Of a stretch of DNA of 64,000 nt, positions 1 through 50,217 are shown piece by piece. Within the stretch, counting starts at the first letter, position 1, and each line of letters starts with the position of its first letter. The position numbers and the translations under genes are program-made. Under the pieces are notes generated by a model. The model saw only the letters and a list, made by a program, of their open reading frames with translations. It made no database searches and was not told where the DNA came from. The DNA lies in the NCBI RefSeq assembly GCF_030028105.1, contig NC_092398.1, positions 24,319,649-24,383,648 of the forward strand, read 5' to 3'. Source of the stretch: Mobula birostris (Eukaryota).

Positions 1-534
1 TCTCTATCTGTAGGTCTTTGTTCTGAGAAGTTTTATCCGTCTGCGTTTGAGCCAGCTTGCCTGATATATATTTGAGAACCAAAACTTATGTAAAATGTGT
101 AGCTGCTGGAGGAGTTTTTTTTTTTTTTTTTTTGCTTCTTCGCTCTTCGGTAGCGTTGCTGGAGTTCCAGCAAAGTACTAAGAAACTGATTGCGAAGATT
201 TGCCTTGAAGTCGTCATGCAGGATGCAGTGGACTAATTATACATTGTTCTCGAAAATGATAGACATTGTTTTCTGTATATTTGAACGCTAGACAAAGGTT
301 TAAATAAGGAACTATCTGGTCATAAATTGTCCTGAAGCACGTGACATTTACTTCTGTAAAAATCCACTTGTATCTCTTGTCACGTACCATTCATGCATAA
401 GTATGGCTGAGTTTTCTTGTTTGACAGAGTCCTAAGACGCTGATTTACGAACTTGGGCTCTCCATGATATCATGTGTCAATAAAGATTTTCCGAAGCGGC
501 TCCCTTCGGGTCTGTGTACTCTTTTTCCGCGACA
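1..534 (+). repeat. 3' LTR (partial) of a further upstream provirus copy
   Basis: Near-identical to 23626-24157; AATAAA at 479; ends GCGACA followed by GTCAC (535-539). Confidence 0.9.
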
Positions 535-2654: not shown

Positions 2655-2875
2655 CTTCTTGTCACACGAGTCAAGCTTGTTAGCCCTGAGCTGTGCCCCA
2701 AACCTAGAAGACGAGTCGATCACTCTTAGTTTGGGGTCTATCATTTGACTTGCTTGGCATGGGTGACCCTAACGAGAGCGAAAACATAAATCTCTGACTC
2801 CAGCCGTCAAAGCTCGCTGGGCCAGTGAGGCAAGCAAGCCGCCAAACTCAACGACTGTCTTCTTGTGGTCCTGTT
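2655..2875 (-). mobile_element. Degenerate RTE-clade retrotransposon 5' UTR remnant (also 26278-26498, 53018-53238)
   Basis: Minus strand reads ...GCTGGAGTCAG...TAGGGTCACCCATGCCAAGCAAGTCA...CAGCTCAGGGCTAACAAGC, resembling RTE/Expander 5' ends as recalled; not verified by search. Confidence 0.45.
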
Positions 2876-3010
2876 GGCCGGCGGTGTGGTAAAGAGAAAT
2901 GGCTTGGAGAGGGGGCAAGCCCATATCCATTGGATCAGTGAATGTGAGGGGTCGACTAAGGTACTAAGAATCACAAAGGGACGGCCCAGTGATGGGCACT
3001 GCAACAACGA

Positions 3011-3290
3011 CTCCCAAGATCAGACACAGAGTGAAGCCCGTTCTACATTCTCTCATCCTATACTTCCAGGGTCAGACACAGAATGAAGGGCTCTCCTAAT
3101 CGTTCCATAACACATTCCCCGAGTCAGACACAGAGTGCAGCACCCTCCCCACTGTCCCATCACACTCTCCCGGGGTCAGGCAGAGCGTGAAGTTCCCTCC
3201 ACAGCGTCCAATCGCACACTCTATGGATCAGACACAAAGTGAAGCTCCCTTTACGCCGTCCCATCACCCACTACCAGCGTCAGACACAGT
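3011..3290 (+). repeat. 52-bp minisatellite, ~5.3 degenerate copies
   Basis: CAGACAC(A) core at 3021, 3073, 3125, 3177 (degenerate), 3229, 3281. Confidence 0.9.
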
Positions 3291-4378
3291 GAGTTCCAGT
3301 GAGGAAGAAATCACTGATAGTCTCCATGTACTATCTGTGAAACTCCTGTTCACATATGGTTCGGATTTCTGCAGCATTCATGGACTCACGGTCTCAGACT
3401 ATATTTTTTTGTCTGAGTGTATTTACTGATATCTTATATGCACGTGCAAACATTTATATTGTTTTGTTATGTTTGCTGTTGGTATTTTTTGTTTACCTTG
3501 GCCCCGGAGTAACGCTGTTGCGTTCGGCTATAATCATGTATGCTTGATTAACAATTAAATGAAACTATGAAATGTGGATGCAAAGGCTCATGGCGTCGTA
3601 GTTAAACATTGGGGAACGTAATTCCAAAGCATGGTCACACTGGAGACAACATCTCAGAGATTCCCTTCGAGGCACTTCGGCCGAGCGGCAGTGGTGGGGA
3701 CAGATATGGAACTTTTTCAACGAGAGTATCTTCCCCCTTTGCATCAGGGACCGAGAGAGGAGGCTATCGCTCAGTGCGTTCAGAACACAACATGTTGAAG
3801 AATGAAACACGGGAACTGGTCCTACAAGCACACCATTTCTGTGATAACCCGACCCCAAACTACATTAATCTCTTCAAACTTAGTGCATATCTCTTCATTC
3901 CATTCAATTTTAGACACCATAGACTATTAGACATAGAAGCAGAATAAGGCCATTCAGCTCATCGAGTCTGATTTATCATCCACCTCAGCAACATTCTCTG
4001 GTCTTCTATCCATATACTAGGACACGTTTTCTCAATCGAGAGATCGGCAACCTCCAGGGTAGCGGGGTGGAGATAAATATCTACCAAAAGAGGTGGAAGA
4101 CGCTCCTTCCCTCCGGTAGCCTGCAGGTCACCATTAGGCACGCTGTAACACATGCTTTGTTCTCCTGATCAGTGTCACATGGAACCGCGAGGGCAGTTGG
4201 TATGTGTAGCGGGTGTATGTCACAGATTCTGACTGAGCAACCTGTGATGCCAGGCAGACAATCTCAGAAGGACATTGATAATGGCTGGGTTAAACCATCT
4301 TGTAAAGATACTGGCCAGTAGAAGGCACACGAAAACGGCGGCGACTTTCCGGAAGAGAAAATGCGCTTTTGGTGGAAG

Positions 4379-4506
4379 AACACACACAAAATGCCGGTGG
4401 AACGCAGCAGGCCAGGCAGCATCAGAGGAAGAAATACAATCAACGTTTCGGGCCGAGACCTTTCGTCAGGACGAACTGAAAGAAGAGTGAGTAAGAAATT
4501 TGAAGT
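4379..4506 (-). mobile_element. Penelope-like terminal fragment with hammerhead ribozyme motif (also 28002-28129, 54742-54869)
   Basis: Reverse complement of the PLE end at 17530-17661; minus strand GTC-CTGACGA-AAGGTCTCGGCCC-GAAAC-GTT-GA. Confidence 0.75.
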
Positions 4507-4515
4507 GGTTGTCCT

Positions 4516-5155
4516 GCTGGATGTAGTCTACAATGCTGTTGCTTACAGGGTGTGCGCTCCGTTGTGAAGGATGTCGGGAAATGTATTAAATGAGGAATAA
4601 TTCAACCGCGCATGCTCTATAGCAAATGGGGTTAATTTCAGAAATTAACCACGTGGCCTCCTTCTAACTTAACTTCTCAACAATGAAAGGAAATGCTTTG
4701 TTATTCACTGCTCTCTGAGTAAAATATTATCTCATGATGTCAACACCTCAACTTCCTAATATTGAGCTTCCTGGAACTACAAACCCAGAGTGTCTCTACC
4801 GATGTGGAGTAACTCATCTCTTCTGTTCATTGGGAATTAAGACCGCACCTTTGCTAAATCAGCATCCAAATTCCGCACAAGAAACAACTCCTCAAAATAA
4901 CTCGATCACCCAATGAATTCGACCGTCCATCACTGTTCAGGTCCTGTGCAAGGCTACTCCCATGCGCCCAAGGGAATTTAACGTCTGAGTGCAAGTATCC
5001 AAACCTGCGGAGGACCGCGACGGAGCCGGAGATTTCAGGCAAAGGTGAGATGAATTTCCACGGGATTCAGATAACAGATACTGAGATAGTGTAGACAGTC
5101 AGAATCGCTTTCCCATTGTGGGAGCAACATTGAGAGGAAAGCTTATATTTATCAT
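4516..5155 (+). repeat. Older paralogue of the putative GPCR promoter/exon-1 module (also 28139-28778, 54879-55518)
   Basis: 4626-5060 aligns with 10363-10800 and 5075-5155 with 11050-11132; 4516-4625 aligns with 1990-2100; splice donor AAG|GTGAGA at 5044/5045. Confidence 0.75.
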
Positions 5156-5239
5156 GAGGTCATGAGGACATGATTATTTTGGTATCAGAGAGTGTAATGT
5201 CCTGGTTCATATTTTTACCGTTATTTTGTAAGTATTTCA

Positions 5240-6010
5240 TTTTAGTCTTCAGCCTCCAAGTTCACGAAACCAAATCCTTAACTATCGACTCCAATATCTT
5301 CCCAACCACTGCGGTCAGACTAATTGGCCTACAATATTCTTTCTTCTTCCTCTCTCCATTTTTGAGGAGTCTAATGACGTTTGCAATTTTACAGTCTTCG
5401 GACCTATTCCAAAAACCAGTGATCCTTGAAAGATCATTACGATTGCCTTTGCAATCTCTTCAGCTACCTCTTTCTGAGCACTGGGGTGTACACCATCAGG
5501 TCTATGTGACTCATCCACGTTCAGACCTATCAGTTTGCCAAGGATCTTTACCCCAGTAATGTTAACTTCACACACTTCATGATCCACGATACACGAACGG
5601 TATGTTGCTTCCGTGCTGCCAGGATAAAGAATGTCTCTGAAACGATCCAAGGACATTCCCAAAGACGACAGGGGACAGCCAAACGTATTACTTCCTATTG
5701 GCACGAATAAAATAGGGAGACAAAGTGACGAGGTCCTGAAGAGACATTTTAGGGAATTCGGTAGAAACTAAGAAACAAGACTTTCAGGGTGCTAATCGCT
5801 GAATTGCTAACTGTGTCATGCGCCAGTCATTGTAGGAATAGGAAGAATTGGCAGATGATGACGTAATTGATGAACTAGTGCAGAGGGCACGCAGGAACTT
5901 AGATTCATCGGACATTGGGATCTCTTCTGGTGAAGGTATGACTTGTACAAAAGGGACTGATTACACCTGAACCCGAGATGGTCCAATATCCTTTCGTGGC
6001 TGAAAGAGGA
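5240..6010. mobile_element. CR1 fragments: ORF2 piece (-, ~5240-5575) abutting an ORF1 SGNH-esterase piece (+, ~5578-6010); also 28863-29633, 55603-56373
   Basis: ORF 5315-5704(-) LIGLNVDESHRPDGVHP..KEVAEEIA; the + piece aligns with the reverse complement of 19130-19550. Confidence 0.75.
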
Positions 6011-6189
6011 TTTTTCAGTAGCTAGCAGCTTAATGTCCAAGGTTTTACAGTGTAGCGCAAGGACAGGCAGGACGGCAGAAGTTGTGGCGTTGGTGTGATG
6101 CTGAAAAAAATGAATTGAAATCATTAGTAAGAGGTGACAATGGAAAGAAGGTTATTGAATCTTTGTGGATTCACTGTGAGAATTCGGAT

Positions 6190-7378
6190 ACAATCCCGAA
6201 AATAATTTGGCTTATTGAGATTTTTCTATCGAGTATCATTTTTCTAATTATTTTTAAACGCTCTACGATTGATATGGCTTTTAAAGAACAGGATGTATTA
6301 AGTATTAAATGCTTTCAGGACTTGTTTGTAGAGGGAAGTATCTTATCGTTTGAACAACTCTCAACGAAATACAGTTTACCTAAAACTCATTTTTTTCTTT
6401 GATACCTACAAATAAGAGATTTTTGACGGTGTCAAATAAGAATATTTCCCAAAAGCCCTGAGAAGAACCTACTGGATGCATTTTTTAATTTGATTTTTTT
6501 TAATAATGGATCTATATCTACTGTCTAAAATATGCTGTAGAGAATGAGAATTGTTCCTTCAGATACAATAAAAAAATACTTTGGGAACAAGATTTACAGA
6601 TTTCAATTTCTGAGTAAACTTGGAATCAAATTTATAAATTGGTTAACACTTCATCGTTATGTGCCCGCCACTCTGTCCTACAATTTAAAGTGGTACATTG
6701 CGCCCATATGACCAAGGATAAATTGCCTCGCTTTTATTTAGGTGTATCTCCGTTTTGTGATCAATGTAATAATGGAGAAGCTTCACTCATTTACATGTTT
6801 TGGACATGTCCGAGTCTTGAAAAATATTGGAAAGAAGTACTTCAAACCTTCTTGATACTTTTCAAAATATACTTTAAAACTAATCCTTTGACACTTTTAT
6901 TTGGTATTGTTGGAGGAAACGATATCATTTTGGAGTCATCTGACTTGCATATTTGGCCTTTATTTATCCTATGGCCAGAAGGACAATCTTGCTCAAATGG
7001 AAAGCTGTGTCCCCACCCATTCACTCTCAATCGTCTCGTGATGTCATGTCATGTATAAATGTAGAGAACATTCGATGTTTAATCTCTGAATCCAGCAAAG
7101 ACTTTCAAACATTGTAGGTAACTTGTGTGAATGATTTTCTAAACATTTGATTTGCTGTTAAACCACAGATGATGACTGAAACTTTTTTTCATTTTTTTCT
7201 TTACTAATCATCTTCGGTCTTGGTAGTGAGTAACATTTTTAATATAACAAAATTACTATATTTCAATCTTACGTATTAATTAATCAGTATGAATATAGCG
7301 TAAGGAGTCATTATGTGCAATATATTTTTTCCTGTACACTGTATTCTTATATGCAAAATTAATAATAAAAATATTGGA
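6190..7378 (+). mobile_element. L1-clade LINE 3' fragment (also 29813-31000, 56553-57740)
   Basis: SFEQLSTKYSLPKTHFF, LQFKVVH, SPFCDQC...MFWTCPSLEKYW (C-terminal Cys-rich domain of L1 ORF2), AT-rich 3' UTR and A-rich end. Confidence 0.8.
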
Positions 7379-7439
7379 AAGGAGTCGTTGTGGAGAGAAT
7401 CTTCCTGTTAGGTTGAAAGGAGGTTTAAAAGTTTGAGGG

Positions 7440-9207
7440 AGCCATGGTTTTCAAGGGATATTGCAAGCTTGGTTTTGAAAAAGATAGGGATCTACAATAA
7501 ATATATGCAGCTTGGAGTTAATGAGGTGCTCGAGAAATATAAAGAACGTAAAAAAGAATCTTAAGAAAGAAATTGGAAGTGCTAAAATAAGATAGGAGGC
7601 TACTTTAGCAAGTAGATAAAAATAAATCCAAAGGGTTTCTACAGTTGTACTAATAGTAAATGGATAGTGAGGGATATAATTGGTCTCTCAGAGAATCAGA
7701 GTGGACGGCTATATGGGGAGCCAAAAGAAAGGGGGAGATTTTGAACAATTTCTTTTCTTCGGTATTCACTAAGGAGAAGGATTTTGAATTGTGTAAGGTA
7801 AAGGAAACCAGACGGGTATTTATGGAAAGTACGACGATTAAAGTAAAGCAAGTATTAGCGCTGTTGAGGAATCTAAAAGTGTATAAGTTTCTGGGTCTGG
7901 ACAAGATATTCACTAGGACCTTGAGGGAAGTTAGTGTGGAAATCGCAGGGGCTCTGACAGAAATATTTCAAATATCATTAGAAACGGGGTTGGATGTTGC
8001 CAGAGGATTGCCATATTGCTCATGTTGTTCCATTGTTTAAAACGGGTTCTAAGACTATATCTAGCAATTATCGGCTTGTGAGTTTGACGTAAGTGGTGGG
8101 TAAATTGATGGAAGTATTCTTAGAGAAGCTATATACAATTATCTGGATAGACAGGGCTGATTAGAGACAGTCATCCTGGATTTGTGCGTGGAAGGTCATG
8201 TTTGACAAATCTTATAGAATGTTTGATTAGGTTACTCGGAAAGTTGACGAGGGTAAGGCGTTGGATGTTGTCTGTATGGATTTCAGTAAAGCCTTAGACA
8301 AAATTCCACACGGAAGGTTAGTTAGGAAGGTTCAATCGTTAGGCATTAATTTCGATGTAGTATAATGGATTCAGCAGTGGCTGAAAGATGGCAGATAGAG
8401 TTTAATGCTGAAAGATGAGAGGTGCTACATTTTGGTGGGACTAATCAAAATAGGACATACATGGTATATGGTAGGGCATTGAAGAATGCAGTAGAACAGA
8501 GGGATCTAGGAATAATGGTGCATAGTTCCCTGAAGGTGGAATCTCATGTGATAGGGTGGTGAAGAAAGCTTTTGGTATGCTGGCCTTCATTAATTAGAGC
8601 ATTGAGTATAGTAGTTGGGATGTAATGTTGAAATTGTATAAGGCATTGGTGTGGCCAGATTTGGAGTATTGTGTACAGTTCTGGTCACCGAATTATCGGG
8701 AAGATGTCAATAAAATTGGGAGAGTACAGAGGAGATTTATTAAAACGTTACCTGTGTTTCATCTCCTAAGTTACAGATAAAGGTTTAACAAGTTAGGTCT
8801 TTGTTCTTTGGAGCAGAGAATGATGCGAAGGGACTTGAAAGAGGTATTTAAAATTATGAAGGGGATGGATAGAGTTGACGTGGATAGGCTTTTTCCATTT
8901 GAGAGTGGGAGAGATTCAAACAAGAGAACATGAGTTGAGAGTTAAAGGGAAAAAGTTTAGGGGTAACATGAGGGGTAACTTCTTTACTCAGAGAGTGGTA
9001 GCTGTGTGGAACGAGCATCCAGCAGAAATGGAGCAGGTTTGATGTTGTCGTGTAAAGTAAATTTGGATAGATATATGGACAGGAAAGGAATCGGGGGTTA
9101 TGGCTGAGTGCAGGTCGGTGGAGCAAGGTGAGAGTAACAGATCGGCACGGACTAGAAGGGCCTAGATGGCCTGTTTCCGTGCTGTAATTGCTATATGGTT
9201 ATATGGA
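7440..9207 (+). mobile_element. CR1 LINE, 5'-truncated and internally deleted
   Basis: EILNNFFSSVFTKE, GPDKIF.R.LRE, DVV.MDFSKA.DK.PH, LEYCVQFWSP; short repeat tail TATGGTTATATGG. Confidence 0.88.
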
Positions 9208-9229
9208 TAGAGCTAAAAAAAAAAAACTG

Positions 9230-10362
9230 CAAGTGTAAGAAGTCCCTGTCTTAGTCGCTGAAGAACTGAGGGAAAAGTTTAAGGTAAAAGAACCCTAAGG
9301 GTAAAGTGATCATATTATGATTGAATTTATCCTGAAGAACTTGCTCTGAACACATGTGTATCAGGTACGACTGCAGAATATAGGTAAGTAGAGTGACCGC
9401 AGAATATAGGTAATTAGAGTCATGAGAGAGGCGTTGGCCAGAATAGATAGGAAAAGAACACTTTGGACGTTGGTAGAACCGCAATGGCTGGAATTTCCGG
9501 AAGCAGCTCGGAAGGCGCAGAATATAAACATCCCAACAGAAGGAAGTATTCTCAAGGCACAATGAAACAATCGTGGGCAAGAAAAGAAGTTAACGCCAAC
9601 AGAAATCCAAACGGTAACCAAAAATACAGCGAGATTTACTAGGAATTCAGAGGATTAGGTAGCTTTGAAAAACCAACAGAAGAAACCTAAAAAGTAATTG
9701 AAGATGGAATACGAAGGTAAACTGACCAATAAAATTAAAGAGGATACCAAATATTTCCTACGATAAGTAAAGTGTAAAAGAGAGACAAGAATGGATGTTG
9801 GGCCTCAGTAAATAAATGCTGTTGAGTTAGTAATGGGGGACACGGAATTGGTAGATGATCTGAATAAATATTTTTCATCTCTACTCACTGTGGAAGACAC
9901 GAGCAGGATGGGTGTGAATTCACTATTCCTCGACAGCAAGTTCTGGGGTAAATCGAAGGACTGGGATAGATCAGTCATCTGGAACAGATGGAGTAATCAC
10001 AAAAAGAAACTCTGCACTGTCCCATCATACAATGTCCGGCAGAAATAAATCCCGTGGCCTCTAATAAATGGAAGGTTTTATTCTTCATTCCTCTCTGAGT
10101 GAAGTATTATCTCATGATGACAACACGTGAAATTGTGCATATTGAGCTTCTTGTAACTTCAAACCCAGAGTGTTTGGACGGCTGTAAAAAGATGCTGGAG
10201 ATGTACTAAAGGCGGACGCGCAAACGGCGGACCACCTGAATAGGTATTTTCCATCAGTGTTCACTGTGGAAGACACCAGCATGAAGTGTCGGAATTCACT
10301 ATTCCTTGATAGAAAGTTCTGGGGAATCAAAAGGTCTGAAGGTAGATAAATCACCTGACCTT
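9230..10362 (+). mobile_element. Older CR1 ORF2 fragments, interleaved with a partial promoter-module copy (10045-10175)
   Basis: DDLNKYFSSLLTVEDT (9833 ORF), second LNRYFPSVFTVEDT at ~10235, GLKVDKSP. Confidence 0.7.
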
Positions 10363-10787
10363 ATGGGGTCAATTTCAGAAATTTACCACGTGATCGCTTT
10401 ATCTACTTTACTTCTCAAAAACAAGAGGAAATGTTTTTTCCCTCTGTGCTTTCTGAGTAAAGCATTATCTCATGATTTCAACAACTCAACTTCTTTATAT
10501 TGAGCTTCCTGGATCTTCAAACCCAGAGAGTCTCTACCGAGGTGGACGAACTCATCTTTTCGCTCATTCGGAACCAAGGCCCCATCTTTACTAAATCAGC
10601 ATCCAAATTCAGCACAAGACACAACTCCTCGATCTACCTCGAGTACTTAGGAAATCCCACCGTCCGTCTCTGTGCAAGTCCCGTTCAAGATTACTTTCGT
10701 GCGCTCAGGAGAACTTAACGTCTAAGTACAAGACTCCAAAACTGCTGAGGACCGGGAAGGAGCCGGAGGTTCCAGGGAAAGGTGAGA
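10363..10787 (+). promoter_or_regulatory. Putative promoter and non-coding exon 1 of the GPCR (also ~33984-34408, ~60724-61147)
   Basis: Block duplicated locally, ending in a consensus donor AAG|GTGAGA (10781/10782); candidate acceptor after a long pyrimidine tract at CAG 12143-12145 or 12148-12150; E-box CACGTG 10387 and ETS-like AAGAGGAAAT 10423. No transcript evidence. Confidence 0.5.
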
Positions 10788-11569
10788 TGCATTTCCACGG
10801 GTTTTATATTAATTTGGAAATGTGGTGGCTGATCAGGGATCATCAGCGTGGCGGCGTTGTGGAAGGAGGCCTGCCTTACTACTTTCGGGAGGTTTTTCAG
10901 GAGAGTATATTCTCTTAGGCAATGAAGGCAGGGCAGTGGGATTATCAATATGCAGTTCAGTGAGGAGAACTTCAGAGGTTAGAAAGCCTGGGCTTGTTTT
11001 CCATGCGGCGGAAAGCAGCTTACGGATGGCCTAACAAAGGAAATTAAGATACTAGCTATAGAGATGGTGCAGACAGGTAGAATCGCTTTTTCATTGTAGG
11101 AGCAACATTGAGGGTAAGGCTTATATTTATCTCGAGCGGAGACTTAACCGAATATAAAGGCTAGGCTATTTTAAAGTTTATTTTAATTTTTAGTTAGATT
11201 TGGAGATAAAGTACGGTAATCAGCCCTTCCGACCCGACGAGACCGTGCCGCCCAATTACTGTCATGTGATCAATTAACCTACTGGCGTCTCGAGTTTCTG
11301 GGGTTGACAGGTTTGTCATATGAGGCACTCACTTCTACTCACTGAAATTCAGAAGAATTGGTGGGCGGGGGGGATGTCTTCATAGAAAGCTGTTCAATGT
11401 GAAAAGGCCTCGAAAGAGTGGATGTAGAATAGATGTTTCCTATGGGAAGTAGGCTAAGACTAGACGACACAGCCGCAGAATGCAGGGCCGTTCTTTTAAC
11501 AGGGAGCTTATGAGCACTTTGGAAAGCCATTCTACAGTACTCTGCAAAGTGTCTTAGGCACATACTGTA

Positions 11570-11755
11570 TTTAGAGACACACGTGGAGCAGCCCTTTCTG
11601 CCATCTAGCCCGCACCGCCAGCAGCCAACCTATTTAATCGCAGCCTTTTCGCAGGATATTTTACAATGATCAAATAACCTCATAACTAGTACGTCTGTTG
11701 AACGTGGAGAAACCGGAGTACCCGGAGCAAACTCACACGGTCTCGGGAACTTGTA
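11570..11755 (-). mobile_element. V-SINE/HE1-like SINE fragment (also 35191-35376, 61930-62115)
   Basis: GAAACCGGAGTACCCGGAG.AAAC.CAC motif characteristic of the reverse complement of V-SINE central domains. Confidence 0.6.
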
Positions 11756-12233
11756 TCAGTGGTTGTAGCAACCTGATCACCCTAATCCAGTAGAATATTC
11801 TCCTGGCTGCAGAGGATGATACAGGATCAAAATAACGGCTGTGTTCGGGTGGATACCCTTCATAGGGAACGCCTCCGTGGCACTTTGTTTCACGTGGGGA
11901 GGATAAAACACGGGCAGCCACCACACGGTATTTGACAGTTCTGGGCGGCCGGGGTCCAGCGGCAAGTAATGAAAGAAGATTGTGGTCTCTGCGCTGCAGC
12001 AGACTTACTCCACCTTCACTGCCATATTACGTGTCCTGTTTCCGTTCCGTGTGGCTATCTTCCTTCTTCGTTCTCTCCTTCTCTCCTCAATACCTCTTCG
12101 CTCAATTATTCAACCCTCTAACTTCCACAATTTTTCCACCACCAGATCAGACATATCGCTCTCTGAAGGAGTGTCCAATTCGACGTTCACTGGGAATCTC
12201 TCCCCCAACAATTTCGCGACCGGTAGATTCAGA

Positions 12234-13076
12234 ATGGAGTGGGGAGCACCTTCCGTCATGACAACGGTCATCCTTATCCTTACCGTCCTACTGGGCGCCC
12301 CGGGAAACGGCGCAGTCATCTGGGTGACGGGCTTCAAGATGAAAAGTAACGTCTGGAATGTGTGCTTCCTGAACCTGGCTGTGGCTGACCTGATTTATTG
12401 CCTGTGTCTCCCCTTATACACTATTCTCCAGCTTAAACCCATTTATTTTTGGCTGGTTGTATTACCCACTATGTTCCTAGTCGCTTTTGCCAGCCTATAT
12501 CTGTTATGCCTGATCAGCATCTACCGCTGCCTGGCTATTACACGGCCCATATGGTTCCAGCAACATCTGAGCCTCGCATGGGTTCGTGTGACCTGCTTCG
12601 TGGTCTGGGTCATAGCCATCGTCATCTTTATGCTTGTATTCTTCTCTTGGTATTTTTCCGTGTGTGCGCTAATTTGGATCACGTTCACCTTCGCCCTCCC
12701 GCCTCTTGTAATTATGATCATTTGCTACGCCTTCGTTGGCCGGAGGCTGCAAGGGGTCAGGCTCGCTGAGTCCAGGAAGCCCATACGCCTGATCGTGACC
12801 ACGGTCGCCGCATTTATGATCTGCTGGCTCCCCAGCACTCTCTACGCCCTCATACCAAACGCCTACATGCAGAGTCATTTTAACTGGTATATACTCACTG
12901 AGGCCCTGGCCTCATTCAACAGCGCCCTCAACCCTCTTATCTACGTCTTCGCCGGCAGCGACTTCCGTCAGGTCTTCAGGCGCTCCATGTTTGCCTCGCT
13001 CCTGCTGGCCTTCACCGAGCATGAGCCAAAGGGTGAGACCGAGACCCGCAATTCCACCTCAAATACGAATGTCTGA
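12234..13076 (+). CDS. Class A GPCR, chemoattractant receptor family (C3aR/FPR/CMKLR1-like), copy 1; 280 aa from the first ATG (frame open from GTG at 11982)
   Basis: 7 hydrophobic segments: TM1 LGAPGNGAVIWVTGFKMK, TM2 FLNLAVADL, TM3 ASLYLLCLISIYRC, PIW in ICL2, TM5 ..IMIICY, TM6 FMICWLP, TM7 LASFNSALNPLIYVFAG, helix 8 DFRQVFRRS. ATG 12234 has a strong Kozak context (agaATGG). Exact orthology cannot be assigned by eye. Confidence 0.9.
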   Translation: MEWGAPSVMTTVILILTVLLGAPGNGAVIWVTGFKMKSNVWNVCFLNLAVADLIYCLCLPLYTILQLKPIYFWLVVLPTMFLVAFASLYLLCLISIYRCLAITRPIWFQQHLSLAWVRVTCFVVWVIAIVIFMLVFFSWYFSVCALIWITFTFALPPLVIMIICYAFVGRRLQGVRLAESRKPIRLIVTTVAAFMICWLPSTLYALIPNAYMQSHFNWYILTEALASFNSALNPLIYVFAGSDFRQVFRRSMFASLLLAFTEHEPKGETETRNSTSNTNV

Positions 13077-13594
13077 TAGAATACCTCGTGGGCCCTCAGC
13101 CGACCAATATCTCCTGACTACAGACACAGTGGACAGTCGGCTGCAAATATGGTCAGCACTGGAGGCTTTCCTGTACGCTTCTTCCAATCTCTTAGAACAT
13201 AGAGCGTAGAACAGTACAGCTCAGGGACAGGCCATTCGGCCTACTATTGTCGGATCAATTAAATTATTAAATTACTGGCCAATTAATCTAATCCCCTCTG
13301 AATACCCAATGTCGATATCCTTCCAATTAGCTCATTTCGCCGACATAAACATCCCTGAAAAGTCTCTGAGCTATCTGTCTTTACCATCATCCCAGTCAGC
13401 GTATACCAAGCACGCACCACTCTCTCTGTGTAAACTACTTGCCCCTCCCATCTCCCTTGTAATTACGCAGTCTCCTCTTAAATGCATGGCCTTTGGTGTT
13501 AGACATTTCAACCTTCGGTAAAATATACTGTTGCTCTGTGCCTTTCATAACCTACCAAAATTCCATCAGGTCTCCCCTCTCTTTTCGCTGGCCC

Positions 13595-14100
13595 AGTCTT
13601 CATTCGGATACAACAATCCATGGTCTCGTCCACTGTCGAGATGAGGCCACACTCAAGTTGGAGGAACAATAACTTATATTGCATTTGGGTACATCCAACT
13701 TGCTGACATGTACGTAGATTTCTCAAAATTCCAGTCATGCCCTCCCTCCTACACCGCTCCCCATCGCCTTTTTCCTCTCTCACATTGCCTGCACATCTCC
13801 TCCCTCTGTTGCTCCTTCCACCTTATCTTTCCTTCATGGGCTTCTTTCCACTCCCCTTCTCGAGCCCTATATTTCTTTCACCAATCAACTTTCCAGCTCT
13901 TTACTTTATCCCTTGCCCCGGTTTGACGTATTACCTTGCGTTTCACTCTCCCCCTCCCTATCTTTTAATTCTGCACCTCATCTTTTCCTCACGGTCCTGC
14001 TGAAGGAACTCAACCCGAAAGGTCGAATGCACATTTCTCCATAAATCTTCAGAAATTTCTGTTTGTTTCTCAGAATTCCACCATCTGCAGTTTCTCTGTT
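13595..14100 (+). mobile_element. Older Penelope-like 3' fragment (also 37216-37721)
   Basis: 13615-13735 aligns with GIY-YIG C-terminal DNA at 17140-17260; pyrimidine-rich tail; degenerate hammerhead at 13993-14028. Confidence 0.75.
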
Positions 14101-14457
14101 TGTAATCTGGCACATCCATTCCACATCAACTCTGTCTAGGCCTTTCAATATTCCAAATGATTTAATGACATCACATTCATCCTTCTGAATTCCAGAGATA
14201 CAGACCCGGAGCTATCAAAGCTTCTTTCTATGATGACCTTTTCATTACCGGAATTATCTTTCTGAACCTCTCCTGAAACCGCTCCAACGCCAGCACTTCT
14301 TTTCTTAGATGAGGAGCGCAAACTGTTCACAATACTCAAGCGAGGACTCACCGGTGCTTTATAAAGCCTCAGCATCACATCCCTTCTCCTGTATTCCAGA
14401 CCTCTTGAAATGAACACTACCATTACATTTGCCTTCTTCACCACCGATTCTACGTAT

Positions 14458-17400
14458 CAGACCATAAGGCCATAAGACAAAGGAGCAGAAGTCTGCCATT
14501 CGGCCCATCGAGTCTCCTCAGCCATTTTATCATGAGCTGATCCATTCTCCCATTTAGTACCACTCCCCCGCCTTCTCACCATAATCTTTGATGCCCTGGC
14601 TACTCAGGTACCTATCAATCTGTGCCTTAAGTACACCTAATATCTTGACGTCCACTGCTGCCCGTGGCAACAAATTCCATAGCTTCACCACACTCTGGCT
14701 AAAAAATTTCTTCTCATTTCTGTTCTGAATGGGCGGCCTTCAATCCTTAAGTCATGCCCTCTCGTACTAGACTCCCCAATCATGGGAAACAGCTTTGCCA
14801 TATTCGCTCTGTCGATGGCTTTCAACTTTCGAAATGTTTCTATGAGGTCTCCCCTCGTTCGTCTAAACTCCAAGGAATACAGTCCAAGAGCGTACAAACG
14901 TTCTTCATATGTTAACCCTCTCATTTCCTGAATCATTCTAGGGAATATTCTCTGTACCCTCTCCAACGTCAGCATGTCCTTTTCTTAAATAAGGAGACCA
15001 AAACTGCCCACAGTACTCCAAGTGAAGTCTCACCAGCGACTTATAAAGCCTCAACATCACATTCCTGCTCCAATACTCTATTCCTCTTGAAATGAATGCA
15101 AACATTGCATTTGCCTTCTTCACCACCGACTCAACCTGGAGGTTAATCTTAAGGCTATCCTGTGTGAGGACTCCCAAGTCCCGTTGCATCTCAGAAGTTA
15201 TAATTATTTCCCCATTTAAATAATAGTCTGCCCGTTCATTTTTTTTTCTGCCAAATTGCATCACCAAACACTTTCCAACACTGTGTTTCATTTGTCACTT
15301 CTCTTTGTTTCCTCAGCACCACCGGCCCCTCCACCTACCTTCGTATCGTCAGCAAACTTAGCCACAAATCCATCTATTCCATAATCCCAATCGTTGATGT
15401 ACCAATTAAAAAGAAGCGGCCCCAGCACGGACCCCTGTGGAACACTACTGGTAACCGGCAGCCAACCAGAATAGGATCCCTTTATTCCCAGTCTCTGTTT
15501 CCTGCCAATCAGCCAACGCTCTTTCCACGTATTTAACTTTCTCATAATCCCATGGGCTCTGATCTTGTTAAGTAGCCTCATGTGTGGCACCATGTGAAAG
15601 GCCTTCTGAAAATCCAAATATACAACATCCACTGCATCTCCCTTGTCCAACCTACTTGTAATTTCTTGAAAAAATTGTCATATCTTTGTCAGGCAGGATT
15701 TTCCTTTAAGGAATCCATGCTGAGTTCTGCCGACCTTGTTATTTGTCTCCAGGTGCTCTGTAACGTCATCCTTGACAACTCGTTTCTGCATACCACGACA
15801 CGGTTTATCCTACCCCACCCCATCCCCCATTCAATCCCTTCCTACCTATGATCGTGACACTTCTCACGCTCTTAAACTTTTCGATGATTTTAAGTTCCCT
15901 GACCCCACCTTTTTATTTTTCCCATGCATGTCCAGTCCCTATATACTTCTATTACCCATCGGGAAGGTCGTAAAGATCTCCGCTTCTTTTTGGATTCGAC
16001 ACCTAATCAGTTCCCCTCTGCCACCATTCTGCTCCTTATAGCGGAATTAGTTCTTACTCTTAATAAGTCTTCCTCCAAAGTAAAGGTGTAGCTATGGGCA
16101 CCCGTATGGGTCCTAGCTATACCTGTCGTTTTGTTGGTTTTTGCAACAATCTATGTTCCAAACCTATTCTGGTATCTGTCCCCAACTTTCCCTTCGCTAC
16201 ATGGACGACTGCATTGGTGCTGCTTCCAGCACGCATGCTGAGCACGTTGACTTAATTAACTTTGCCTCCAACCTTCACCCTGACCTCAAGTTTACCTGGT
16301 CCATTTCCGACATCTACCGCCCCTTTTTAGATCTTTCTGTCTCTATCTATGTTGACAGCTTATCTATAGATGTCTACTAGAGGCCGACTCACTCTCACAG
16401 CTATCTGGACTATTCCTCTTCTCACCCTGTCTCTTGCAAAAATGCCATCTCCTCCTCGCAATTCCTCCGTCTCCGCCGCATGTGCTCTCAGGATGAGGCT
16501 TTTCATTCCAGGACGAGGGAGATGGCCTCCTTTATTAAAGAAAGGGGCTTCCCTTCCTCCACCATCAACTCTGCTCTCAAGCGCATCTTCCCCATTTCAC
16601 GCACATCTGCTCTCACTCCATCCTTCCGTCACCCCACTAGGAATAGGATTCCCCTGATCCTCACCTACCACCCCACCAGCCTCCAGGTCCAACATATTAT
16701 TCTCCGTAACTTCGGCCACCTGCAACGGGATCCTACCACTAAGCACGTCTTTCCCTCCTCCCCCTCTCTGCTTTCCGCATGGATCGCTCCCTTCGCGACT
16801 CCCTTGTCCATTCGTCCCTCCATCCCTCCCCACTGATCTCCCTCCTGGCACTTCTCCTTGCAAGCGGAACAAGTGCTACACATGCATTTACACTTCCTCC
16901 CTTACCACCATTCAGGGCCCCAGACAGTCCTTCCAGGTGAGGCGACACTTCACCTTTGAGTCGGCTGGGGTGATATACTGCTTCCAGTGTTCCCGATGTG
17001 GCCTTCTGTATATTGGTGAGACCCAATGCAGACTGGGAGCTCGTTTTGCTGAACAGCAACGCTCTGTCCTCCAGAGAAAGCAGGATCTCCCAGTGGCCAC
17101 ACATTTTAATTCCACATCACATTCCCATTCTGATATGAGTATCCACGGCCTCCTCCACTGTAAAGATGAAGCCACACTCAGGTTGGAGAAACAAAACCTT
17201 ATATTCCGTGTGGGTAGCCTCCAACCTGATGGCATGAACACTGACTTCTCTAACTTCCGCTAGTGCCCTACGTCCCCCTCGTACCCCATCCGTTATTTAT
17301 TTATATACACACGTTCTTTCTCTCTCTCTCCTCTTTCTCCTTCTGTCTCTCTGACTGTACCCCTTGCCTATCCTCTGTGTTTTACCTCCCTCCCCCTTTT

Positions 17401-19620
17401 CCTCCTGCCTGGGCCTCCTGTCCCATGATCCTGTCATATCACTTTTGCCAATCACCTGTCCAGCTCTTAGCTCCATCCCTCTCTCTCCTGTCTTCTCCTA
17501 TCATCTTGGATCTCCCCCTCCTCCTCCCACTTTCAAATCTCTGACTAGCTCTTCCTTCAGTTAGTCGTGACGAAGGGTCTCGGCCAGAAACGTCGACTGT
17601 ACCTCTTCCTAGAGATGCTACCTGGCCTGCTGCGTACACCAGCTGCTTTGATGTGTGTTGCTTGAGTACTTTCTCTGTCGTAATTGTGACTGCTCACACT
17701 TCTCTTCCCTGCCACCTTTGAGTGTCCGTTATACGGATAATTTTCTCCTCAGTGAGGACTGATGCAAAATACTCGTTCAGTTCCACCGCCATCTCCTTAT
17801 CTCCCATTACAATTTCTCCAACATCATTTTCTATCGGTCCTATACCTAGCCTCACCTGTCTTTTTCTCTTCATATACTTGAAAAAGCTTTTAGTATCCTC
17901 TTTGATATTATCTGCTAGCTTCCTTTCATAGTTAATGCTTTCCCTCTTAATGACCTTCTTAGTTTCCTATTGCAAAGTTTTAAAAACTTCCCAATCCTCT
18001 GTCTTCCCACTAATTTTTACTTCCTTGTATGCCCCCTCCATTGTTGTAACTTTGACTATGGCTTTTTCCATTCAAAAATTTCTTCTTTTTTGGAATACAC
18101 CTGTCTTGCACCTTTCTCACTTCTCGCATAAACTCCAGCCACTACCGCTCTGCCGTCCTTCCTGCCAGTGTCCCTTTCTAGTCAACTTTGACCAGTTCCT
18201 CTCTCATGCCGCTGTAATTTCCTTTACTCCACTGAGATACTGACACATCGGATTTCGGCTTCCCTTTTTTCAGATTTCACAGTGAACTCAATCATGTTAT
18301 GATCATTGTCTCCTAAGGGTTCCTTCATCTCAATTTCTCTAATCACCTCGGGTTCATTACACAATACCCAATCCAGTACAGCCGATCCCCTAGTGGGATC
18401 AACAACCTGTTCTAAAAAGCCATCTCGCAGACATTCTACAAATTCTCTTTCTTGAAATCCAGTGCCGACCTGATTTTCCCAATCCACTCGCATGTTAAAA
18501 TCTCCCACAATTTTCATAACATTGCCCTTCTGTCAAGGTTTTTCCATTTCCTTTTGGAAATGTGTAGTACACATTACTGCAGCGGTTTGGAGATCTATAA
18601 ATAACTGCCATCAGGGTCTTCTTACCCCTGCGATTTCTTCGCTCAACCCATAAAGATCCCGTACCTTCCGATCCTATATCACCTCTTTTTAATCATTTAA
18701 TATCATTTCTTACTAATAAACCCACGCCTCCCCCTCTGCCTACCTTCCTATCCTTCCGGTACAGCGTGTGTCCTTGGACGTTCAGCTCCCAGAGACATGC
18801 ATCATTTAGCCAGTTCTCAGTAATGGCCACAATATCATACCTGCCAATCTGTAGCTGTACGACAAGGTGATCCACCTTATTCCTTATGCTGCGTGCATTT
18901 CAATATAACACCTGAAGACCAGTATGTGGTACTTTTCGCTTTGGTTTCGCTGCAACCTTATTACACTGCAACTCATCCCGATGGCTACAAATTTGCCCCA
19001 TCACCTGCCTGTCTTTCCTGGCATTTTTACTGCTCACTATCTTGGATTTGTTTATGTTTTCCCCTTCCTCCGCTCTATCATTCCGGATCCCATCGCCCTG
19101 CCAAACTAGCTTAAACCCTCCCTAACAGCTCTATTAAATCTTCCCGCAAGGATATTGGTCCCCTTCGCGTTCAGTCGTAACCTGTCCCTTTTGAACAGGT
19201 CATATTTCCCCCAGAAGAGATCCCCATTATCCAAGAATCTGAAACCCTGCCCCCTGCACCGCTCTCCAAGCCATGCATTCATCTGCCTGATCTTACTATT
19301 CTTGCCCTCGCTCGCACGTGGCACAGGTAGCAATCCCGAGATTACTACCCTGCAGGTCCTGCTTCTCAGCTTCCTTCCTAACTCCCAGAAATCTCTCTTC
19401 AGGACCTCCTCCCTTGCCCTATCTATGTCATTGGTGCCAACATGTACCAAGACAACTGGCTTCTCGCCCTTCCCCTTCAGAATATTCTGGACCCGATCCG
19501 AGACATCCCGTACCCTGGCACCTGGGAGGCAACACATCATGCGGGTATCTCTATCAGGCTCACAGAATCTCCTGTTCATTCCCCTGACTATGGAATCCCC
19601 TATGACTACCTCTCTGTAGT
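14458..19620 (-). mobile_element. Near full-length decayed CR1 LINE (ORF1 SGNH esterase, APE endonuclease, RT) interrupted by a Penelope element
   Basis: ORF1 VVIGDSIVRG/VHVGTND (19106 ORF); EN DIVAITENWL, RKDR..GRGGGV, GDFN, LDWVL, DHNMI; RT VYLDFQKAF, VPQGSVLGPLLF, KFADDTK; (ACCATAAG)n tail at ~14460. A further CR1 piece lies at 14106-14457. Confidence 0.92.
15790..17661 (+). mobile_element. Penelope-like element (RT + GIY-YIG endonuclease), 5'-truncated, nested in CR1
   Basis: GVAMGTRMGPSY, LRYMDD, PFLD, CSQDEAFHSR, VIYCFQCSRCGLLYIGET..RLGARFAE, VATHFN, QPDGMN; hammerhead-type motif at 17563-17598. Confidence 0.9.
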
Positions 19621-22600
19621 GTGATTTTGAGAATATGATGGGATGTTTTGGGAAATGGATGCAGGTGGCAATGAGACACCAGCCCCATAAACAAAACAGA
19701 AAGAAAGAAAAAGAGGAGGAGCACCCTGTCACGAAGAGTCTCGATGAAAAGCAAGGCCCGGCACCACCAACCGCTCCGCCACCCTACCCACTCAGATCCC
19801 ACCCCCGCCCCCCCCAACGATGCGGGCACACGTACCATTATACCCCCGGATACCGCAAATGGTATCTCTCGAAAGGAGAGATTCTGGTCCTAATATTCTA
19901 CCAAATGGACTGATAAACGAGATAATAGAGATGGTAGCAGCCTGGGTCAGCAGAGTAACCGCACTCGGGAACAATCGGCACATCAGCTCCTGCTGAAGGA
20001 GCTGATGAACCCACACAAGGGGCAGGCGGAGGTGAAGGCAGGGAGGTATAACTGGAGGAAGGGGTACAAACCAGACACATGTCTCAACGAATGGCCATTC
20101 ACTCCTCCACCTCTCCGACAGTTCAGCCTCCAACAATAATGATAGGAGAAACAGCAATATTAAAGCCATGGACGCCTGCAGAGGCCTGAGCTTTTGTAGC
20201 TGAGCTCCCTAATCGAATAAAAAGACCAACAGCGTTCCTCAGTTGGTTGGAACAAATGTGCGAAATTTATAAGCCTCTCCCGGTAGATTTGCGGACTCCT
20301 TTTCAAACGTGCCTATGAATGCTCCTGGGCAGCTTCGAAAGATTCATTCCAGATTCCGCCCGGGAAGAATGCAGATTAGCGGAAAGATGATGAGAAAACA
20401 CCACAGGGTAACGAATCCCTGTGTTCTTGGCTGTCCAATAGAGGGAAGGACGCCATATTGTGGGCAGCACAACGGCATAGGGACTTAGGAGAAGTGACTA
20501 GATGCTTTCAGAAGAAGATTGAAGGAGCCCCTGATTTTATAGCTCGGTTTAAGAATACGTGAGAGGAGTATGCCGGAGTTCCCTTAGAGGAAAATGGGCC
20601 ATTGGCCATCCAGACTCTGCAAAATTTAATGTTGCCCCAACAAGGCAGATTTTTAAAATGCGAGATTTGAACTGGCAGGCTATGCCTTGGTCAAAACTAG
20701 TCACTACTTTGATAAACATGGAAAGGGAGGGAACCTTCGTCGCACCCGGGATGGCCTTCAAACGCATTAGACAAAATTTTACCTACAGGAACAGGAGAGG
20801 GGAAAAGAAAAACGGAGAACATAGAAAAAGAGAGTTGAAAGATCCCAGGATATGTGCCGAAGATGTGGGGAAAATGGACATTGGGCCAAAGAGTGCCGAA
20901 TTCGTGCAAAGCAGGGTCGAAGTACTTCCTATAAAGAACCCACAGATTGGACTGGACAAAACGAGAGAAGGGTGACCTCCTTCTCTTATAGCAACCCTTT
21001 CCCACTGGAATATGGGTCCCAGGGGAGGTGGTGGTATAGGGAACGGTCATATCACTTTCCCAAGACTCCGAAACGCAACCCATGGTAAATCTTAGAATAG
21101 GAGACACTCACTTGGTGGACACTGGCGCTACCCTGTCCTCTGTACCCCCACCCTGGGATTACCCCTGAGCCAGAACAGGTTAGGAACCGTAGTGGTAGCC
21201 GGAATCCCACTGTCAGAACTCTTATCGAAGAAGTTCCCCTTGTCCCTGGGAGACACTTGTATACAAGAAACTTTGATAGTCTCCAATACTACTCCCTTGC
21301 CGCTGTTGGGATGCCAAGCTCTGTGTAAGGTAGGAACTACTATTTACCGCTCTCCTCAGGGCATGTACATGGAAGTACCCTCGCCCCGGACGCATCAGTT
21401 AACGTCCCTGTTTCTCAACCACGAGGCCAAACTCGACCTGGTATTGTAATGCTGGCAACTCGAGGGCAACCCCGACACAGTTAAGATGTACCGGCTGCGG
21501 CCAGAACTTGAGGGGCTGGCGCCGACGGCTCGCACTGAAGCTTTGTGGGGCTTGTTGCAAGTGGTCCGATACTACTCCCGTTTACACTGCACCGCCTGGT
21601 ACACAACGACAGATTATCCAGAATACCGAGAAAAGGCGTACACCCACGAAGGGCTGAAAGCTGAGATACACCCAGACCCTTATCTATATTTTGAGAAGGA
21701 AGGGCTGGGTATCCCGTTACGCCTGACCGCAGAGTAGCAACCCCTGTCCCACCTGGGACCTGCGTCAATACCTCACCTACCCCTTGCTGTACGGCCTCCC
21801 TATCAGGAGAAACAGATAGGCCCAATGATGAAATGGTTGCAATCAGCCCCTATTAACGAGTGCATTGGGGACTTTGAATGGAACGGGCCTGAGGAGGGAA
21901 GAATACACCTTCCGGGAACATCCCGCCAGTTGGAGGACACCCTAACCGAATTTCAACGACAACAACTGCCCGAGCCGCCAGGCCATAGGAGCCCTTCAGC
22001 ATTGGAAAGGGTAAATGCAGACTTGTGGGCCCTCCACAAGACACACGTGGGTCGAGTGCTCACTGCGAGAGACCTCTGTGTCAAGCTAAAAATGAATGCT
22101 GTATTACCATGTGTTAGGCAGTATCGACTAGCAGCTAAGGCAGAAGAAGGCATAGCCCCGGTCAGGGACTCTCTGCTCCAACAGGGGGTTCTCAAGCCTA
22201 CCGTCAGCCCCTGTACACACCAGTACTGCCTATACCTAAAGTTGGACGGCCCAATGAGCATTGCAATTCCCATAGCACCGGTGGTACCTGACGTCAGTAT
22301 GATTGTTCATCCATTCCCTCTGATGCTACTGTCTACACTGTGGTCGACCTGTGCTCCGCGTTTTTTTTCTATTCCTCTCCATCCGGATAGCCAGTATTTG
22401 TTTGCCTTCACATACAAAGGGCATCAGTATACCTGGACCCGATGCCCCAGGGGTATACCGAAATTCCGGCCGTGTACGCTGCTGCCGTTGAACATGACTG
22501 AGACAAGTGTCATCTGGGAGAAAGTTCTATATTAATACAATACGCCGACGATCTGTTGGTGGCGTCAGCTACACTGGCAGAGTGTGTAAAAGACTCAGTG

Positions 22601-26633: not shown

Positions 26634-26913
26634 CTCCCAAGATCAGACACAGAGTGAAGCCCGTTCTACATTCTCCCATCCTATACTTCCGGGGTCAGAC
26701 ACAGAATGAAGGGCTCTCCTAATCGTTCCATAACACATTCCCCGAGTCAGACACAGAGTGCAGCACCCTCCCCACTGTCCCATCACACTCTCCCGGGGTC
26801 AGGCAGAGCGTGAAGTTCCCTCCACAGCGTCCAATCGCACACTCTATGGATCAGACACAAAGTGAAGCTCCCTTTACGCCGTCCCATCACCCACTACCAG
26901 CGTCAGACACAGT
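26634..26913 (+). repeat. 52-bp minisatellite (unit 2)
   Basis: Copy of 3011-3290. Confidence 0.9.
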
Positions 26914-35800: not shown

Positions 35801-35854
35801 TCGACGTTCACTGGGAATCTCTCCCCCAACAATTTCGCGACCGGTAGATTCAGA

Positions 35855-43240: not shown

Positions 43241-43249
43241 TCCGATAAC

Positions 43250-45783: not shown

Positions 45784-45786
45784 AAT

Positions 45787-45804
45787 TGGCGATGAGGATG
45801 TGAT
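45787..45804 (+). promoter_or_regulatory. Primer-binding site, tRNA-Ser(GCT)
   Basis: TGGCGATGAGGATGTGAT matches 16/18 nt of TGGCGACGAGGATGGGAT, the complement of the vertebrate tRNA-Ser(GCT) 3' end as recalled; 3 nt downstream of the LTR. Confidence 0.8.
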
Positions 45805-50206: not shown

Positions 50207-50216
50207 AAGGAGGGAA
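50207..50216 (+). promoter_or_regulatory. Polypurine tract
   Basis: AAGGAGGGAA immediately before the 3' LTR start at 50218 (same at 23463-23472). Confidence 0.8.
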
Positions 50217-50217
50217 C

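Follow-up and report, generated by a model that had tools for sequence, protein, structure and literature searches.

What kind of receptor is left when a complement-type chemoattractant receptor loses its conserved disulfide and nearly all of its second extracellular loop? The question is raised by a 64,000-nucleotide stretch of the Mobula birostris genome (RefSeq assembly GCF_030028105.1, contig NC_092398.1, positions 24,319,649 to 24,383,648 of the forward strand; hereafter the window), in which an open reading frame at 12234..13076 (+) encodes a putative receptor of 280 amino acids. An original prediction, made from the letters of the window, had described a stripped-down receptor of a lineage-specific family, with an open pocket or constitutive activity and unlikely to be a true C3a receptor. 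Here, we report that the gene belongs to a reduced-loop receptor family of batoids that is real and apparently undescribed. The family descends from the C3aR/C5aR lineage, its residues are not those of a C3a receptor, and it resembles the MAS-related receptors (MRGPRs) only by convergence. In our reading, to which we give a probability of about 0.6, the focal gene is a recent tandem copy in this C3a/C5a-type-derived family of rays and sawfish, whose members are likely diversifying immune-cell sensors with uncapped pockets and ligands other than C3a.

The 280-codon frame (single exon) has an end-to-end match to Pfam 7tm_1 (E 5.6e-24), and modeled fold and domain match together place the predicted product in class A (rhodopsin-like) of the G protein-coupled receptors (GPCRs). 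Generic residue numbers were counted from anchor residues, and motif names follow standard usage. R98 is 3.50; 25 residues back stands W73 (TGG, 12450) at position 3.25, aligned without gaps with C3.25 of the normal-loop paralogues, which bears out the claimed absence of that cysteine. The further remark that this Trp is one base from Cys is true of the codon, but there is no sign of a recent slip, and a recent single C-to-W change was ruled out, since W is the commonest 3.25 residue across the reduced family (29/72, sawfish members included). W3.25 in place of C3.25 and a shortened extracellular loop 1 (ECL1; a five-residue loop, residues 66-70) occupy 12429..12452 (+), the segment varying most among the young copies of the array in which the focal gene lies; the ECL1 Trp is missing, and the spacing from 2.50 to 3.50 is 46 versus 52, six residues fewer. 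The WxFG motif is absent, as had been noted, but unspecifically so, xFG being absent from 18/18 normal-loop shark and ray relatives (e.g., WPRDNVLC); among the normal relatives, only the chimaera protein has WPYG. Y3.49-R3.50-C3.51 replaces DRC (12522..12530, +), transmembrane helix 6 (TM6) reads CWLPST with W6.48 and P6.50 retained and Y6.51 and H6.52 gone (12822..12839, +), and NPLIY (NPxxY) is retained (12930..12944, +), all three as originally described. N3.35 has changed to V, and D2.50, S3.39, P5.50, Y5.58, and N7.45 are retained. At 4.64, 5.42, 6.51, and 7.35, the focal copy has W, I, S, and Y versus R, R, Y, and D for C3a binding, where the 5.42 assignment may move by one residue (to W148) owing to a one-residue insertion in TM5.

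The described near-absence of ECL2 was confirmed. The span from W4.50 to Y5.58 is 40 residues in the focal copy versus 64 in 14/19 normal chondrichthyan relatives (54 to 62 in the other 5), and the loop is cut to a predicted three-residue turn, S138-W139-Y140 (12645..12653, +). An AlphaFold2 model built with 150 sequences (mean predicted local distance difference test score [pLDDT], 89.6; predicted template modeling score, 0.87) has seven helices, with TM4 at 114-137, the turn at 138-140, TM5 from 141, and no strand or beta-hairpin between. Its best structural matches (48,161 chains) were C5aR1 (Z 27.8; root mean square deviation [rmsd] 2.1; 250 aligned) and C3aR (Z 26.6; rmsd 2.5; 245 aligned), with MRGPRD at Z 24.4 and MAS1 at Z 24.0. 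An earlier fold (70 reduced-loop sequences, full length; mean pLDDT 61.8), in place of which this second model was used, had C3aR, C5aR1, and FPR on top in structure searches but with little discrimination. By sequence, the first solved-structure relative was C3aR (E 7e-40), then FPR2 (E 3e-34) and CMKLR1, with MRGPRX4 at E 6e-21; the TM4-TM5 stretch alone had no significant match among solved structures.

The same architecture recurs in other batoids. A homologue search found 137 proteins, and the top 84 among the 120 listed all came from five species, four rays and a sawfish (two Mobula species, Hemitrygon akajei, Hypanus sabinus, and Pristis pectinata). No skate protein was among the named matches, and the one electric-ray protein, P0097, was normal-loop (P numbers denote database proteins, L numbers receptor loci of the own genome, and C34 the contig carrying the window). 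By W4.50-Y5.58 span, the proteins fall into classes of 64 (normal), 45 to 48, 43, and 38 to 40, which in the own genome are nested in-frame deletions, the first taking 16 residues including the ECL2 Cys. The sawfish has the 45-48 class only (12/12), and the four myliobatiform species (both stingrays and both Mobula) have all three reduced classes; the further six-residue ECL1 deletion was found, among reduced-loop proteins, only in Mobula, including the intact P0002 and P0003 of the second species. An assembly error or a hidden intron behind the short ECL2 was ruled out by in-frame deletions common to many paralogues and five species.

Residues were tallied in 72 reduced proteins (the focal one and 71 from the database) and 19 normal chondrichthyan proteins; left out were ten truncated or mis-modeled reduced proteins, among them P0094, which reads DQH in an uncertain alignment, and two mis-spliced normal ones. 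D3.49 was found in 0/72 reduced proteins (Y 25, C 21, F 11, S 7, V 7, and L 1) and in all 19 normal ones. C3.25 was present in 4/72, none with the loop Cys, and both cysteines of the TM3-ECL2 disulfide occurred together in 0/72; the four exceptions without an ECL2 Cys are stingray proteins (P0033, P0035, P0037, and P0042), in which C3.25 is likely a reversion from Trp. The residues that bind complement have mostly gone too (R5.42 in 2/72, with W in 46; Y6.51 in 9/72; R4.64 in 17/72; D not among the six commonest residues at 7.35), as has H6.52 (8/72). Normal proteins have C3.25, D3.49, R4.64, R5.42, and H6.52 in 19/19 and Y6.51 and D7.35 in 18/19, and among 59 non-chondrichthyan relatives in the alignment, 57 have C3.25 and 56 have D3.49. 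Retained in the 72 reduced proteins are N1.50 (71), D2.50 (71), R3.50 (71), W4.50 (70), P5.50 (67), Y5.58 (68), F6.44 (72), W6.48 (69), P6.50 (72), N7.49 (72), P7.50 (70), and Y7.53 (72).

Descent was read from a tree built carefully from 43 of 83 proteins (300 columns, without the sparsely filled loop positions), in which the reduced proteins form one clade (support 100/99) within the batoid genes (95/93), the shark genes are sister to the batoid genes (100/99), the chimaera comes next (100/98), and all lie in the C3aR/C5aR clade (98/97). The MRGPRs form their own clade (100/100) outside, with four starred branches between them and the reduced family; a quick tree of all 83 rows had the same shape. 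An approximately unbiased (AU) test (28 rows; quick LG+G4 tree) rejected monophyly of the reduced proteins with the MRGPRs (p = 0.0175), and descent from MAS with it. By descent, the reduced family belongs to the C3aR/C5aR gene lineage, as a single ray and sawfish clade, in agreement with the lineage-specific family originally proposed; the likeness to MAS drawn at the same time does not go beyond analogy and, given the separate clades and the AU rejection, is convergent. Joining the chondrichthyan branch to C3aR (p = 0.289; 80/81 with tetrapod C3aR in the 43-protein tree) or to C5aR1 (p = 0.336) was rejected in neither case, and the trees allow the parent to be orthologous to C3aR, to C5aR1, or to both.

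Losses of this kind are not confined to batoids. A profile search of 50%-identity representatives gave 116 complete alignments (107 representatives and 9 added controls), with two further batoid members and eight other non-control proteins without C3.25 or the loop Cys. Seven of the eight were looked up and comprised four frog proteins (P0393, P0408, P0413, and P0429; two labeled FPR-like), P0421, P0431, and one lizard MRGPR; the frog proteins, P0421, and P0431 keep DRC or DRW despite the missing C3.25 or ECL2 Cys. The losses in the four frog proteins, P0421, and P0431, which lie outside the trees, were probably independent. Disulfide loss thus recurs in expanded chemoattractant receptors.

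The tandem setting is visible in the window itself, which is a head-to-tail segmental duplication along its whole length (1..64000; units of ~23.6 and 26.7 kb; 99.4-99.6% identical; one receptor per unit) and part of an array that runs on past both edges. A second coding copy (35855..36697, +), identical at all bases, lies 23.6 kb downstream of the first, and a third (62594..63436, +) lies 26.7 kb further with three nonsynonymous differences (K68E, W139G, and A210D), each in an outer loop. When the own genome was searched, 138 of 270 candidates were scored and 119 of them matched, the strong matches lying on C34 at 20.2-21.2 and 23.8-25.7 Mb. Seven normal-loop paralogues at 21.0-21.16 Mb (L032, L033, and L037-L041) are intact, with C3.25, DRC or DRY, the ECL2 Cys, and CWLPYH. 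Their ECL2 (span 64) is short next to that of tetrapod C3aR, which is very long.

Among known systems, C3aR and C5aR1 resemble the focal receptor as its top solved matches by sequence (C3aR) and by fold (C5aR1 and C3aR), in the shared intracellular motifs, and in a single coding exon after a predicted intron in the 5' untranslated region (5'-UTR). The focal receptor differs in its missing C3.25-ECL2 disulfide, an ECL2 of ~3 residues, Y3.49, the absence of R4.64, R5.42, Y6.51, and D7.35, a predicted N-terminus of ~4 residues, and tens of tandem copies. For human C3aR, R340(5.42), Y393(6.51), D417(7.35), R161 (R4.64), and Y174 are reported as required for C3a signaling (PMC12084609, PMC7615941). 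With R4.64, R5.42, Y6.51, D7.35, D3.49, and the disulfide all lost, C3a binding by the focal copy seems improbable from its sequence, as the original prediction held.

MAS1 and the MRGPRs (MRGPRX1, MRGPRX2, and MRGPRD) share with the reduced family the absence of C3.25 and its disulfide, a short ECL2 (W4.50-Y5.58 span of 43 to 49 in 8 MRGPR-labeled proteins), and tandem expansion, and MrgD also has a non-acidic 3.49 (PMC9287403). They form a separate clade, however, and are described with G/S6.48 and with a TM4-TM5 disulfide of C4.64 with C5.32/5.33 (PMC10286997, PMC9287403), whereas the reduced family retains W6.48, P5.50, and Y5.58, and the focal copy, with W at 4.64, could not form that bond; the window copies have only C144 at the top of TM5. 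Two cysteines flanking the ECL2 turn are present in the young paralogues L008-L011 (codons 136 and 144, window numbering) and P0002, where they could form an MRGPR-like TM4-TM5 disulfide. The shallow MRGPR pocket is attributed to G6.48 packing on Y3.36 (PMC10286997); the focal copy has W6.48 and A3.36, and a pocket of that type is therefore unlikely. In the whale shark genome paper, MAS1 and its relatives are reported as absent from cartilaginous fishes (PMC8455134).

The open pocket originally suggested is supported by the model, in which the pocket is uncapped; MRGPR-type shallowness is not supported. The nearer architectural analogue for an uncapped pocket with W6.48 is the melanocortin receptors, which have that residue; they are an unrelated class A branch, are not known to have undergone tandem diversification, and were not among the 50 rows listed in the structure searches, an absence that excludes nothing. 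Like the focal receptor, they are described with a short ECL2 and no C3.25, and with a large open peptide vestibule (PMC9287403). FPR1/2, rodent Fpr-rs, and CMKLR1 belong to the same chemoattractant group, and FPRs also show lineage-specific duplication and fast-evolving outer domains, reported to evolve under microbial pressure (10.1101/2021.08.02.454796), but FPRs and CMKLR1 fall outside the clade of the reduced family. A vertebrate GPCR survey reports fast evolution and many internal duplications in the chemoattractant group, and its accessible text has no mention of "cartilaginous" (PMC6504862).

Selection was examined in own-genome paralogues with codon models (relative branch lengths fixed from nucleotide trees). 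The ratio of nonsynonymous to synonymous rates (omega) in the core lay below 1 (p < 0.004 in every case) on normal branches (0.21), on deep reduced branches (0.28), and in both the 43 class and the older 39-40 class (0.54 each), and outer-face omega was 0.19 in normal versus 0.69 to 1.27 in reduced genes, no reduced value differing from 1. Site models favored M2a over M1a in the reduced sets (p = 0.002 to 3e-20; omega class 3.8 to 6.3; normal genes, p = 0.74), and 18/21 of the flagged sites are in the outer face. For the 22 intact reduced genes tested, the balance of amino-acid to synonymous steps differed between outer face and core (Fisher p = 1e-5), with no significant difference for the 7 normal genes (p = 0.75). 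Within 10 intact young copies, outer-face non-degenerate changes numbered 52 versus 25.6 expected from flanking DNA (P = 3e-6), and codons 58-81 had 30 changes versus a flank mean of 10.3 and maximum of 19 in same-size windows. A partition model with shared synonymous rates for the young array (outer 1.52; core 0.56) was set aside because the flank comparison and free-rate models show that it depends on equal synonymous rates. A fair reading is that the old family has a core under constraint and an outside that is relaxed or diversifying, and that for the young burst of copies function is neither shown nor excluded.

A 5' non-coding exon without any ATG is predicted at 10541..10781 (+; donor AAG/GTGAGA; 5' end not fixed) from its copies in the genome and from the gene model of the relative P0002, which joins the same segment to the coding exon. 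The segment has 37 genome matches, all inside the receptor cluster on C34, and the donor GT is retained in 21/22 aligned copies. A predicted 5'-UTR intron follows (10782..12145, +; GT at 10782, pyrimidine tract, AG at 12144-12145), and paralogues have the same acceptor just ahead of their start ATG (within ten bases), which leaves 51 residues with N-glycosylation sequons ahead of N1.50. In the focal copy, the former N-terminal coding stretch of 27 codons with two such sequons (12146..12233, +) is a predicted untranslated leader, its ATG having become ATA; neither this upstream stretch nor the two further copies in the window had been noticed in the original prediction. With no ATG in 10541-10781 or 12146-12233, the first ATG of the spliced message would therefore be 12234 (strong context, AGAATGG), with TM1 beginning ~4 residues on, and 12234-13076 is likely the coding sequence of a product without the glycosylated N-terminus. 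Contigs from three runs, of uncertain type and possibly DNA, were mostly repeats with low-depth or divergent pieces on the coding sequence, and none of the joints shown in them lies at a predicted splice site.

Several results weigh against the reading of the focal gene as one of a diversifying set of sensors. The ancestral start of the focal copy is ATA (12153-12155), and the glycosylated N-terminus was lost with the ATG; only 2/17 young-array copies have the ancestral ATG (L006 and L007, one of them with a stop), which is present in most database relatives (N1.50 at residue 52). Besides the seven normal-loop genes, the own genome has 38 loci or fragments (three of which, L047-L049, are fragments without an assignable loop type), comprising 24 unbroken frames, 1 frameshifted at the start, and 13 broken or partial. 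In the youngest array, home of the focal copy, core omega is 0.78 (p = 0.36 versus 1), outer-face omega does not exceed 1 (0.91-0.94) when given a separate rate scale, and the contrast in the outer-face/core ratio is not significant (p = 0.54), nor is it in the 39-40 class (p = 0.16). Core non-degenerate changes run at about the flank rate (71 versus 75.8 expected in 17 copies; 43 versus 53.7 in the 10 intact copies, P = 0.08). Young outer-face fourfold-site changes are also up (12 versus 5.7 expected), so the pattern of positive selection could have arisen through local gene conversion or changes of several bases at once, and the codon models ignore recombination and gene conversion among paralogues. 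The coding sequence shows no shortage of indels (4 patterns in 843 bases versus 8 in 1245 upstream and 14 in 1116 downstream), and tree length is 0.25 for coding sequence versus 0.21 and 0.20 for the flanks. The D134N/V changes in CXCR1, substitutions of D3.49, are reported to have abolished binding and signaling (PMC4372616).

Much of this would be expected if the young array were largely drifting, old functional genes having been multiplied by 24-30 kb segmental duplication faster than selection can act, with the window copies becoming pseudogenes. We hold this to be a serious minority prospect. It fits poorly with the depletion of premature stops in 17 young copies (1 versus 5.7 expected, P = 0.023), with deep-pocket residues almost invariant across 13 young copies while the rim varies, with a second ATG in strong context behind a predicted leader free of upstream ATGs, and with the same six-residue ECL1 deletion in the intact P0002 and P0003; all three window copies also keep an open 280-codon frame. 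Of the refuting signs named in the original prediction, normal loops are absent from the close homologues, but the core ratio in the youngest array does not differ significantly from 1. The chances that the focal copy itself makes a working receptor are about even.

Raised basal activity is plausible by analogy, since MrgD combines Q3.49 with high basal activity, its authors citing raised basal activity of D3.49 mutants in several GPCRs (PMC9287403), and human C3aR already has high basal activity (PMC12084609). Together with D3.49 in 0/72 and R3.50 in 71/72 reduced proteins and with V at 3.35 in the focal copy, this would suit ligand-independent constitutive signalers that set Gi tone in immune cells, their output tuned by copy number, but a ligand-free signaler leaves the faster outer-face amino-acid change unexplained, D2.50, S3.39, W6.48, and N7.45 are retained, and the CXCR1 result points the other way; we consider it unlikely. 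Tandem expansion with a variable outside and a conserved inside is a signature of chemosensory families too, and FPR family members are reportedly expressed in mouse vomeronasal neurons, a precedent for co-option as chemoreceptors of the olfactory organ or skin; the family descends from immune receptors, though, and a term search of a catshark sensory-organ paper, a weak test, found no mention of FPR, C3a, or MRG, so that such co-option is improbable. Similarly improbable is an outer face stripped and still changing as an evasion of toxins or pathogen antagonists that bind C3aR/C5aR/FPR loops, and not under pressure for new agonists, or copies serving as decoys: variation centers on the loop rims and not the deep pocket, and mammalian FPR outer domains are reported with repeated positive selection and altered binding of a staphylococcal inhibitor (10.1101/2021.08.02.454796), yet under escape complement binding should persist, while R4.64, R5.42, Y6.51, and D7.35 are gone in the focal copy, and no outer-face acceleration is seen in the normal-loop genes, which would be the obvious targets.

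Under the preferred reading, of immune-cell sensors derived from a complement receptor, the parent is a C3a/C5a-type receptor gene with normal loops and the complement-binding set; in its offshoots the ECL2 lid and the TM3-ECL2 disulfide have gone, as have D3.49 and the residues that bind complement, and the G-protein-side motifs have stayed. The pocket is predicted to be uncapped and mostly hydrophobic (W3.25, L3.29, M3.32, F3.33, A3.36, S6.51, T6.52, Y7.35, and E7.39), with the W6.48 switch intact below. The family would have its Gi coupling and its expression in leukocytes from the parent, and the activation barrier would be lower because the D3.49-R3.50 bond is lost. Descent and analogy with FPRs suggest that the ligands come from microbes, parasites, or damaged tissue. 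The complement function likely remains with the normal-loop paralogues 3 Mb away, and the family turns over by birth and death. A bolder version, which we advance tentatively and rate below an even chance, is that rays and sawfish, having no MAS/MRGPR genes, built an MRGPR-like repertoire from a complement receptor, with the lid, the disulfide, and the D3.49 lock lost at the base of the clade and stepwise trimming thereafter giving dozens of danger sensors that have open pockets, are easily triggered, and are under selection to diversify. If so, the intermediates (64, 48, 43, and 39) would be a natural stepwise record of a class A GPCR losing its most conserved disulfide.

The TM3-ECL2 disulfide is reported as kept in >90% of class A GPCRs (PMC9287403). 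A wide distance separates the families without it (MRGPR, melanocortin, and CB1) from relatives that have the bond; here, one chromosome carries parent, intermediates, and end products at 40-65% identity, and therefore the change that freed the receptor from its disulfide, the effect of D3.49 on basal activity, and any shift of ligand are open to direct testing. Database labels such as "C3a receptor-like" and "FPR-like" mask the loss of complement-binding residues in most members, and if expressed in leukocytes, the family would be an unrecognized part of ray innate immunity. A full-text literature search, with most subscription papers and all supplements outside its coverage, found no paper on a reduced-loop family, although gene-family tables of ray genomes could list the expansion under its database name. 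The value lies at the level of the family; the focal copy may be a drifting duplicate. Frogs show similar, if less complete, losses, and constraint on the focal copy's own array is weak, both of which limit the weight of the finding.

Several smaller features accompany the gene. Two ATTAAA hexamers at 13258..13271 (+) are candidate polyadenylation signals, picked from sequence only with the chance level not estimated. A second 5' exon module, 80% identical to the first, lies ~5.7 kb upstream of it in each unit (window 4626-5067; donor GT at 5045) and, with its own AAG/GTGAGA donor, is a possible alternative first exon. Start codons have been lost in a complementary manner, L017 and L030 having the first ATG without the second and most others the second without the first, and L018-L020 have another upstream Met as start (the start-codon set also covers L012-L013 and L016); this pattern may reflect selection for keeping one start. 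In L004, a one-base deletion at the stop codon makes the C-terminus 44 residues longer. Near-identical unit pairs at C34 24.25-24.58 Mb (L010/L011, L012/L013, and L027/L028) point either to block duplication, one or two units at a time, or to false duplication in the assembly.

ORFs at 16381-17263 (+) had no Pfam match. Retrotransposon remnants are present in each unit at 15291-15677 (-), 18227-18532 (-), 19106-19783 (-), and 30241-30678 (+), with Pfam matches to reverse transcriptase, endonuclease, an SGNH/GDSL esterase-type ORF, and zf-RVT. The second unit alone carries 3.1 kb at 43241-46389, with remnants of an endonuclease like that of long interspersed nuclear elements followed by a proline-rich ORF (45996-46664) that has no Pfam match and is retroelement-like by eye. 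The P0002 model has a similar sequence at its N-terminus, which is probably an artefact of gene prediction.

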